Below, piece by piece: positions 590 to 1,782 of a stretch of DNA of 64,000 nucleotides; positions within the stretch are counted from its first letter, which is position 1; every line of letters begins with the position of its first letter. Origin of the DNA: Escherichia coli (GTDB taxonomy: Bacteria > Pseudomonadota > Gammaproteobacteria > Enterobacterales > Enterobacteriaceae); assembly GCF_013122565.1 (NCBI RefSeq), contig NZ_CP053258.1; one strand, written 5' to 3'. Made by a program: the position numbers and the translations under genes. Under the pieces are notes generated by a model, which saw nothing but the letters and a program-made list of their open reading frames with translations, was not told where the DNA came from and ran no database searches.

Positions 590-605
590 TGGCATCCGCT
601 TTGCA
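590..605 (+). promoter_or_regulatory. sigma54 (-24/-12) promoter of rut operon
   Basis: TGGCAT-N5-TTGCA with GG at 591-592 and GC at 603-604; rut operon is known to be NtrC/sigma54 dependent. Confidence 0.6.
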
Positions 606-633
606 AACAAGCCATTACGCGGCTGAAAAGGAT

Positions 634-1782
634 ATGCAGGATGCAGCGCCCCGTCTGACTTTCACTTTACGAGACGAAGAGAGGTTGATGATGAAAATTG
701 GCGTATTCGTACCTATTGGCAACAACGGCTGGCTCATTTCGACCCACGCGCCGCAGTACATGCCGACCTTTGAACTGAATAAAGCCATTGTGCAAAAAGC
801 GGAGCACTACCATTTCGATTTCGCCCTGTCGATGATCAAACTGCGTGGCTTTGGCGGCAAAACTGAGTTCTGGGATCACAACCTTGAGTCGTTCACCTTG
901 ATGGCGGGTCTGGCAGCCGTCACCTCACGCATTCAGATTTACGCGACAGCTGCCACCTTAACGTTACCTCCGGCAATCGTCGCCCGTATGGCCGCAACCA
1001 TCGACTCCATCTCTGGCGGACGTTTTGGCGTCAACCTCGTGACTGGCTGGCAAAAGCCTGAGTATGAGCAGATGGGTATCTGGCCTGGCGATGACTATTT
1101 CTCCCGTCGTTACGACTATCTCACCGAATATGTTCAGGTGCTGCGCGACCTGTGGGGCACGGGGAAAAGCGATTTTAAAGGCGATTTTTTCACCATGAAT
1201 GATTGTCGCGTCAGTCCGCAACCGAGTGTCCCCATGAAAGTGATCTGCGCCGGGCAAAGCGACGCTGGCATGGCGTTTTCCGCTCAGTATGCCGATTTCA
1301 ACTTCTGTTTCGGCAAAGGCGTAAATACACCCATGGCTTTCGCCCCGACCGCTGCGCGGATGAAACAGGCCGCAGAGCAAACCGGGCGCGACGTTGGCTC
1401 TTATGTGTTGTTTATGGTGATTGCCGATGAAACCGACGATGCCGCTCGCGCCAAATGGGAACACTACAAAGCGGGCGCGGATGAAGAGGCGTTAAGCTGG
1501 CTAACCGAACAAAGTCAGAAAGATACCCGCTCCGGTACTGACACCAACGTCCGTCAGATGGCCGATCCCACTTCGGCGGTAAACATCAATATGGGGACAT
1601 TAGTCGGTTCTTACGCCAGTGTCGCGCGCATGTTAGATGAAGTCGCAAGCGTGCCTGGTGCCGAAGGCGTGCTGTTAACCTTCGATGATTTTCTGTCGGG
1701 AATCGAAACCTTCGGCGAGCGCATTCAACCACTGATGCAGTGCCGCGCCCATCTCCCTGCGCTGACTCAGGAGGTGGCATGA
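634..1782 (+). CDS. rutA: Pyrimidine monooxygenase RutA (luciferase-like flavin monooxygenase)
   Basis: Translation [33 protein letters not shown]...; start ambiguous, see findings (ATG 688/691 has a better SD). Confidence 0.9.

Follow-up and report, generated by a model that had tools for sequence, protein, structure and literature searches.

In Escherichia coli, the gene rutA is annotated with different start codons in different records, and the question that this locus raises is at which of its in-frame ATG codons translation begins. According to the K-12 reference record NC_000913.3, rutA (b1012, NP_415532.3) starts at the ATG equivalent to position 634 of the DNA analyzed here and encodes 382 amino acids (aa), while in RefSeq genomes annotated by PGAP, including an MG1655 re-sequence and O157:H7, it starts at the equivalent of position 691 and encodes 363 aa. 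For the identical K-12 sequence, the 363-aa form is found in at least 1000 contigs (UniRef representative RUTA_ECOD1), the 382-aa form in 569 contigs (RUTA_ECOLI), and a 364-aa form in 71 contigs.

The window, i.e., the whole stretch of 64,000 nucleotides that was analyzed, carries at positions 1 to 3700 the E. coli genes rutR, rutA, rutB, rutC, and rutD, as read from the sequence and the list of open reading frames (ORFs). The context of the rut operon, with rutR divergent and rutB, rutC, and rutD downstream of rutA, was confirmed by these ORFs and by the identical locus annotated as rutR/rutA/rutB/rutC in E. coli genomes. When positions 404 to 1000 were used as a 597-nt query, a match was obtained in 5,421 of 5,426 complete E. 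coli genomes, the closest being that of strain HKUOPY1 (99.2% identity), with K-12 at 97.3%. Of this query, 55% was matched in E. coli 23CRST001, a strain that lacks the 5' end of rutA together with some of the intergenic sequence; PGAP labels the gene there as partial, without its N terminus. The genes and codons relevant to the start of rutA are the following.

Ending at 403, minus strand: rutR, divergent from rutA, from the ORFs in the window.
634 to 636, plus strand: ATG634, K-12 reference start of the 382-aa form (NC_000913.3, RUTA_ECOLI), most likely not a start codon.
688 to 690, plus strand: ATG688, possible alternative or minor start (MMKIG...), in frame, ATG in 2 of 79 related loci.
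691 to 693, plus strand: ATG691, most likely start of rutA (MKIGVFVP...), called by PGAP, position 1 of TIGR03612, ATG in all 79 loci.
691 to 1782, plus strand: rutA coding sequence, 363 codons plus stop, pyrimidine monooxygenase (TIGR03612; matches PDB 6SGG across 363 residues).

We think that ATG691 is probably the principal start codon of rutA, giving a 363-aa RutA, and that positions 634 to 690 are part of an untranslated leader. The RefSeq/PGAP model (WP_001352489.1, WP_001340618.1; TIGR03612, "pyrimidine utilization protein A") and the Swiss-Prot entry RUTA_ECOD1 have this same start and length and do not differ from it in any respect. The K-12 model (b1012/NP_415532.3/RUTA_ECOLI) and the construct of PDB 5WAN describe the same gene in the same frame but start 57 nt upstream, at ATG634, and the 19 extra residues are without a homologue, a usable Shine-Dalgarno (SD) sequence, or initiation in vitro, and show almost no electron density. 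Besides ATG691, ATG688 could be the main start, encoding a 364-aa RutA that begins with MMKIGVFVP and leaving both the sigma54-dependent transcription start near 616 and the untranslated leader unchanged, which we consider unlikely. Alternatively, ATG634 could be a genuine start, sole or additional, of a 382-aa protein with a 19-residue tail specific to the E. coli lineage. This second alternative, which has the curated K-12 annotation in its favor, is deemed highly improbable, and any use of ATG634, to whatever extent, is given very little credence.

The first-pass annotation had placed a sigma54 -24/-12 element at 590 to 605, and it can indeed be read there as TGGCATCCGCTTTGCA, with GG at 591 to 592 and GC at 603 to 604, 12 nt apart. 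TGGCA-N6-TTGCA has its single exact match in the 64-kb window at this place, and matches with one mismatch occur at chance frequency. For comparison, 80 Enterobacterales rutA loci were fetched, of which 79 were analyzed at the DNA level, independently of gene callers; the motif TGG[CT]A-N6-T[TG]GC is present at most 200 nt upstream of rutA in all 79 loci, and the sigma54 motif is also found at Pseudomonas and Stutzerimonas rut loci. In K-12, a sigma54 chromatin immunoprecipitation sequencing (ChIP-seq) peak, OS10, lies on the motif CTGGCATCCGCTTTGCA, and the predicted start site, taken as the motif center plus 19 bp, falls 18 bp before the annotated start of rutA (Bonocora et al. 2015, PMC4591121). 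With C604 as position -12, the geometry of the promoter predicts the +1 of the rut mRNA at 616, so that the transcription start proposed earlier near this position agrees with both. No sigma70-like promoter that could yield a longer mRNA was detected by a simple scan of 380 to 720, and a longer sigma70-dependent transcript allowing a start at TTG601 or a longer leader was rejected on this basis. TTG601 is merely the longest-ORF start in the mechanical ORF list; it lies inside the -12 element and upstream of the predicted transcription start, in line with its earlier dismissal as a start codon. We were not able to find in the literature a transcription start of rutA mapped by primer extension, RACE, or dRNA-seq.

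466 to 503, plus strand: two adjacent NtrC-like sites, TGCACTCTCATCGCGCA (466 to 482) and TGCATGTTTTATGTGCA (487 to 503), from reading the sequence, about 113 to 150 bp upstream of the predicted transcription start.
510 to 525, strand not assigned: RutR operator TTGACCGTTTAGTCCA, the reverse complement of TGGACTAAACGGTCAA.
589 to 605, plus strand: sigma54 -24/-12 promoter CTGGCATCCGCTTTGCA, sole exact match in the window, the same motif that lies under the K-12 sigma54 ChIP-seq peak.
616, plus strand: predicted transcription start, from promoter geometry with C604 as -12, the same prediction as in PMC4591121.

The two sites at 466 to 503 resemble the NtrC consensus TGCACC-N5-GGTGCA, and we take them to be putative enhancer sites. 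They directly adjoin the RutR operator at 510 to 525, whose sequence is given as TGGACTAAACGGTCAA for the rutA intergenic region in Table 1 of PMC2475637. Between these upstream sites and the promoter, the AT-rich segment from 540 to 589 varies more from one E. coli strain to another than any other intergenic part and contains single-base indels that are specific to individual strains. With the NtrC/sigma54-dependent promoters of nitrogen scavenging (glnK, glnH, astC, etc.), rutA shares the -24/-12 element, the upstream NtrC-like sites, and the occupancy by sigma54 in ChIP experiments. It differs from them if the K-12 start is used, since the predicted leader would then be 18 nt long, below those of the other genes examined in Table 1 of PMC4591121 (21 to 254 nt), while the corrected start would give 75 nt.

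676 to 685, plus strand: Shine-Dalgarno region GAAGAGAGGT, anti-SD duplex AAGAGAGGU of -8.1 kcal/mol.

The sequence GAAGAGAGG is located at 676 to 684 and is followed by the in-frame ATG codons at 688 and 691. Its best anti-SD duplex, AAGAGAGGU, with -8.1 kcal/mol, lies 5 to 6 nt from ATG691 and 2 to 3 nt from ATG688, and the canonical placement of SD complementarity, about 5 to 9 nt upstream of the start codon, is found for ATG691. Both codons had been described as well spaced after the SD sequence, which holds for 691 and not for 688; that ATG688 is preceded by the same strong SD sequence speaks for it as the main start, but the spacing speaks against it. As for ATG634, it had been argued that a leader of about 18 nt without any SD sequence would precede it. 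The predicted 18 nt stand, but AAGGA does occur just upstream, at 628 to 632, with an anti-SD duplex of -5.4 kcal/mol, and could be quoted in support of this codon; it is unusable as an SD sequence for ATG634 because the spacing is 0 to 1 nt. The shortness of an 18-nt leader would by itself be a poor argument, and the matter is decided by the SD spacing together with the comparative and experimental data.

In the 79 Enterobacterales loci, the ATG at the position of 691 is conserved without exception, and AGG precedes it by 6 to 7 nt in 69 loci. The codon at the position of 688 is ATG in 2 loci, GTG in 20, and a non-start codon in the others, which, next to the invariant 691, weakens the case for ATG688. 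An in-frame stop codon interrupts the predicted leader in 50 of the 79 loci, and the leader frame is open in 29 (37%) versus the approximately 30% expected by chance for 25 codons. Furthermore, in 13 loci belonging to the Enterobacter hormaechei/cloacae group, Buttiauxella, Dryocola, and Yersinia (L022, L023, L026, L027, L041 to L043, L047, L049, L054, L076, L078, and L079), the sigma54 motif stands just 56 to 70 nt before the ATG, and the resulting leaders of 30 to 44 nt leave no room for a 19-residue extension. Both short and long leaders are found within the genus Enterobacter. The same arrangement of a TetR-type regulator, the sigma54 promoter, and a protein starting with M-D-[IV]-G is seen in Pseudomonas and Stutzerimonas.

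At the protein level, the NCBIfam equivalog TIGR03612 (RutA) scores 725.7 bits versus a cutoff of 498.3, and the product is nearly identical to the RutA chains in the PDB. Profile positions 1 to 354 align to residues 20 to 373 of the 382-aa form, so that position 1 corresponds to ATG691, and the N-terminal position typical of the family, M-x-[IV]-G-[VI]-F leading into strand beta1, is obtained only with the start at 691. Among the best 120 homologues, none aligns to the first 19 residues of the long form, a result at odds with ATG634 as a start, and 113 start two residues before the IGVF strand with the same M-x-[IV]-G-[VI]-F pattern, i.e., at the equivalent of 691. Alignment of orthologue N termini, which had been suggested as a check on the earlier reading, thus turned out in its favor, although this evidence is to some degree circular, since the pipelines that call the starts of homologues draw on family profiles. 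In the AlphaFold model of the 382-aa form, residues 1 to 17 have pLDDT values below 50 and strand beta1 spans residues 21 to 28, and the first 17 residues are predicted to be disordered. The plasmid-expressed 382-aa protein does fold and crystallize, which can be held in support of ATG634, but in the resulting structure (PDB 5WAN; 403 residues, made up of the 382 aa plus tags) 341 residues are modeled, compared with 334 to 338 in the short constructs 6SGG (363 residues) and 6SGL (364 residues), meaning that almost none of the extension is ordered. The deposition of the 364-aa form for K-12, 6SGL included, is a point in favor of ATG688.

An extension confined to E. coli would be beyond the reach of a comparison across genera alone, and almost every E. 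coli genome keeps the 634 frame open; these two points weigh against the preferred reading. However, in the E. coli allele of strain SCPM-O-B-8794 (locus L005, positions 1444 to 1500), codon 13 of the extension is changed from CGA to TGA, which leaves the 363 codons of rutA undisturbed. Fifteen complete genomes carry this 91-nt allele in identical form; PGAP calls rutA intact in them, and, going by the sequence, the 382-aa form would be naturally knocked out by this TGA. The isolates of this lineage come mostly from pigs and also from human and cat. Between the window and this allele, the extension differs by four nonsynonymous substitutions (one of them nonsense) and one synonymous substitution, and the core gene differs by 6 nonsynonymous and 79 synonymous ones; the substitutions in the extension are not coding-like (Fisher p = 0.0004 for extension versus core, a test that draws on one divergent allele with 5 differences in the extension). 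Frameshifting indels in 634 to 690 were sought in the length-variant strains N58 and MLI023K1, in both of which the indel lies upstream of the promoter and is therefore uninformative on this segment.

Published initiation data bear directly on these codons. In INRI-seq, ribosomes are stalled by retapamulin on a synthetic E. coli transcriptome during cell-free translation (Hoer et al. 2022, PMC9825163), and the rutA RNA used there extends from about 30 to 33 nt upstream of ATG634 to 153 nt downstream of it. The annotated start gave 0 CPM in five of five replicates despite this leader, which argues strongly against ATG634, while the in-frame ATG at +54, i.e., ATG688, gave 102 CPM in four replicates (PMC9825163). 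The peak being called at +54 and not at +57 favors ATG688, but the method attributes each peak to a start codon lying 15 ± 3 nt upstream of it (PMC9825163), and a window of this width covers 688 and 691 alike and does not separate them. rutA is one of the 279 genes for which an alternative start was the only one detected; it appears in the supplementary tables without being discussed, and the authors ask for in vivo validation (PMC9825163). The case resembles other corrections of start codons by retapamulin profiling or INRI-seq, such as that of uidR (PMC9825163), in which the annotated start is undetected as well and a downstream in-frame ATG has a peak. In vivo, Ribo-RET gave no signal at rutA, as expected from the lack of rut expression in rich medium; rutA to rutG are induced when E. 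coli is limited for nitrogen (PMC9624429). We did not find in vivo initiation data or N-terminal peptides for RutA in the literature.

The family profile, the homologues, the conservation, the nonsense allele of E. coli, and INRI-seq all point to 688/691, in agreement with the first-pass annotation, which had the protein begin with either MMKIGVFVP or MKIGVFVP. Judged from the sequence, MKIGVFVP would be the better fit to both conservation and SD spacing, and it is on these grounds that we infer the choice of 691 over 688. In the mechanism that we propose, the NtrC-dependent sigma54 promoter would direct transcription of the rut mRNA from about 616, and ribosomes would bind the SD sequence GAAGAGAGGU (676 to 685) and initiate at ATG691 to produce the 363-aa RutA, with ATG688 possibly used at a minor level. 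Positions 616 to 690, including ATG634, would constitute a 75-nt 5' untranslated leader, in which the 634 frame would be open by chance alone, and the 382-aa form would be an artefact of annotation.

616 to 690, plus strand: proposed 5' untranslated leader of the rut mRNA, 75 nt; K-12 annotates 634 to 690 as coding.
617 to 654, plus strand: conserved leader block, with CG..G, GGA (630 to 632), GCAGGAnGCA (636 to 645), and GC..CG, from the alignment of 55 distinct long leaders.

Within this leader, the block from 617 to 654 is conserved as strongly as the promoter, while the other part of the leader, up to the SD sequence, is not alignable. In the 55 leaders, the positions that are invariant or conserved to at least 90% are C618, G619, G622, G636 to A641 (GCAGGA), G643 to A645 (GCA), G648, C649, C652, and G653. 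The block is near-invariant across Enterobacteriaceae, Erwiniaceae, and Serratia. Neither the short-leader variants nor the Pseudomonas loci have it, so rut expression as such does not depend on it. ATG634 lies inside the block, and the triplet at its position in other genera is ATG, GTG, TTG, CTG, AGC, or CGC. Variation in the block consists of GGA-N-GCA, with N being any base, followed by N-C-G with a variable N and a fixed G, which is not a coding pattern; that ATG634 belongs to a block conserved at the nucleotide level, where the third "codon" positions are fixed and the first are variable, is a further argument against its being a start codon. In the O157:H7 strain 7386WT (L003), the second GGA of the block (639 to 641), invariant elsewhere, is lost through the substitution G640A, and rutC is annotated as frameshifted in the same strain (from L003:3583); the rut operon may be decaying in the O157:H7 lineage.

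It is also conceivable that the ATG frame of the 634 type is a translated regulatory upstream ORF in Enterobacteriaceae, which in E. coli happens to be fused in frame to rutA, but we find this reading barely credible. Its codons do recur in E. coli, Enterobacter, Leclercia, and Silvania, and in three Enterobacter-like loci (L006, L007, and L020) another frame ends in a TGATG overlapping the start of rutA, which looks like translational coupling. The TGATG overlap is, however, not conserved in neighboring genera, conservation of the start codon is confined to one clade (many others have AGC or CGC), and the frame and length vary by genus (in frame, -1 frame, or early stop). The SD spacing is 0 to 2 nt everywhere, there is no INRI-seq initiation at this place in E. 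coli, and the columns of the NCG type (N variable, G fixed) speak against coding. A conserved leader peptide (MQDAAPR...) was rejected on similar grounds, since neither its start codon nor its frame or length is conserved and the columns vary in a way that does not fit coding sequence. In addition, an out-of-frame ORF of five codons, ATG CAG CGC CCC GTC TGA (MQRPV*), was observed at 641 to 658, with its ATG 8 nt after AAGGA and thus at a good SD spacing; this ATG is lost where the block reads GGAAGCA or GGACGCA, so that the ORF is probably incidental.

A scan of 400 to 900 on both strands against Rfam 15 gave no match at E <= 10, and RNAalifold found essentially no consensus structure in the 55 long leaders. 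A helix drawn by hand (617 to 623 with 648 to 654), together with an inner mini-hairpin with a GGA loop, is 85% paired in these data and shows one covarying pair (A-U to G-C), which is probably a single evolutionary event. The folds of individual species often show this architecture of helix and GGA loop, with z values from about -1.4 to +1.6, mostly positive, relative to shuffled sequence. Since the folding energies are no better than those of shuffled sequence, we do not claim a structured RNA in the leader. The SD region, AGAGAGG, resembles a PyrR binding loop, but this candidate was dismissed, as there was no Rfam match to PyrR, and to our knowledge enterobacteria are without PyrR.

A further comparison is with the binding sites of CsrA/RsmA, where a short hairpin presents a GGA in its loop and a leader often has two such sites. 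The block has two conserved GGA motifs, of which the second is flanked by GC on either side (UGCA-GGA-UGCA in E. coli) and would sit in a hairpin loop according to the minimum-free-energy fold. Unlike in the usual CsrA leaders, the two GGA motifs are 9 nt apart and none overlaps the SD sequence. Neither a link between rutA and CsrA nor rut among the targets of GlnZ was found in the literature. We tentatively suggest that the block from 617 to 654 may be an undescribed cis-regulatory RNA element, adding posttranscriptional control to the NtrC/RutR-regulated rut operon; the possible roles include a platform for protein binding (e.g., of the CsrA type), a stabilizer of the 5' end, and a target of small RNAs. 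If so, ATG634 would simply be part of this element.

The downstream start itself is correct but not new, as it is already present in the RefSeq/NCBIfam model, in recent structural constructs, and in a published supplementary table, although we found no stated correction of the rutA start codon in the literature. What the finding means is first of all a matter of annotation hygiene for a model organism, since the K-12 record and RUTA_ECOLI retain 19 residues that are very probably never made, and constructs built on this annotation, such as that of 5WAN, consequently have a floppy stretch at the N terminus that is not native. Where the position of a regulatory site is given relative to the K-12 start codon, it would likewise be off by 57 nt. 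The corrected start replaces an implausible 18-nt leader with one of 75 nt that contains the conserved block, and this block is the only part of the locus that could give new biology.
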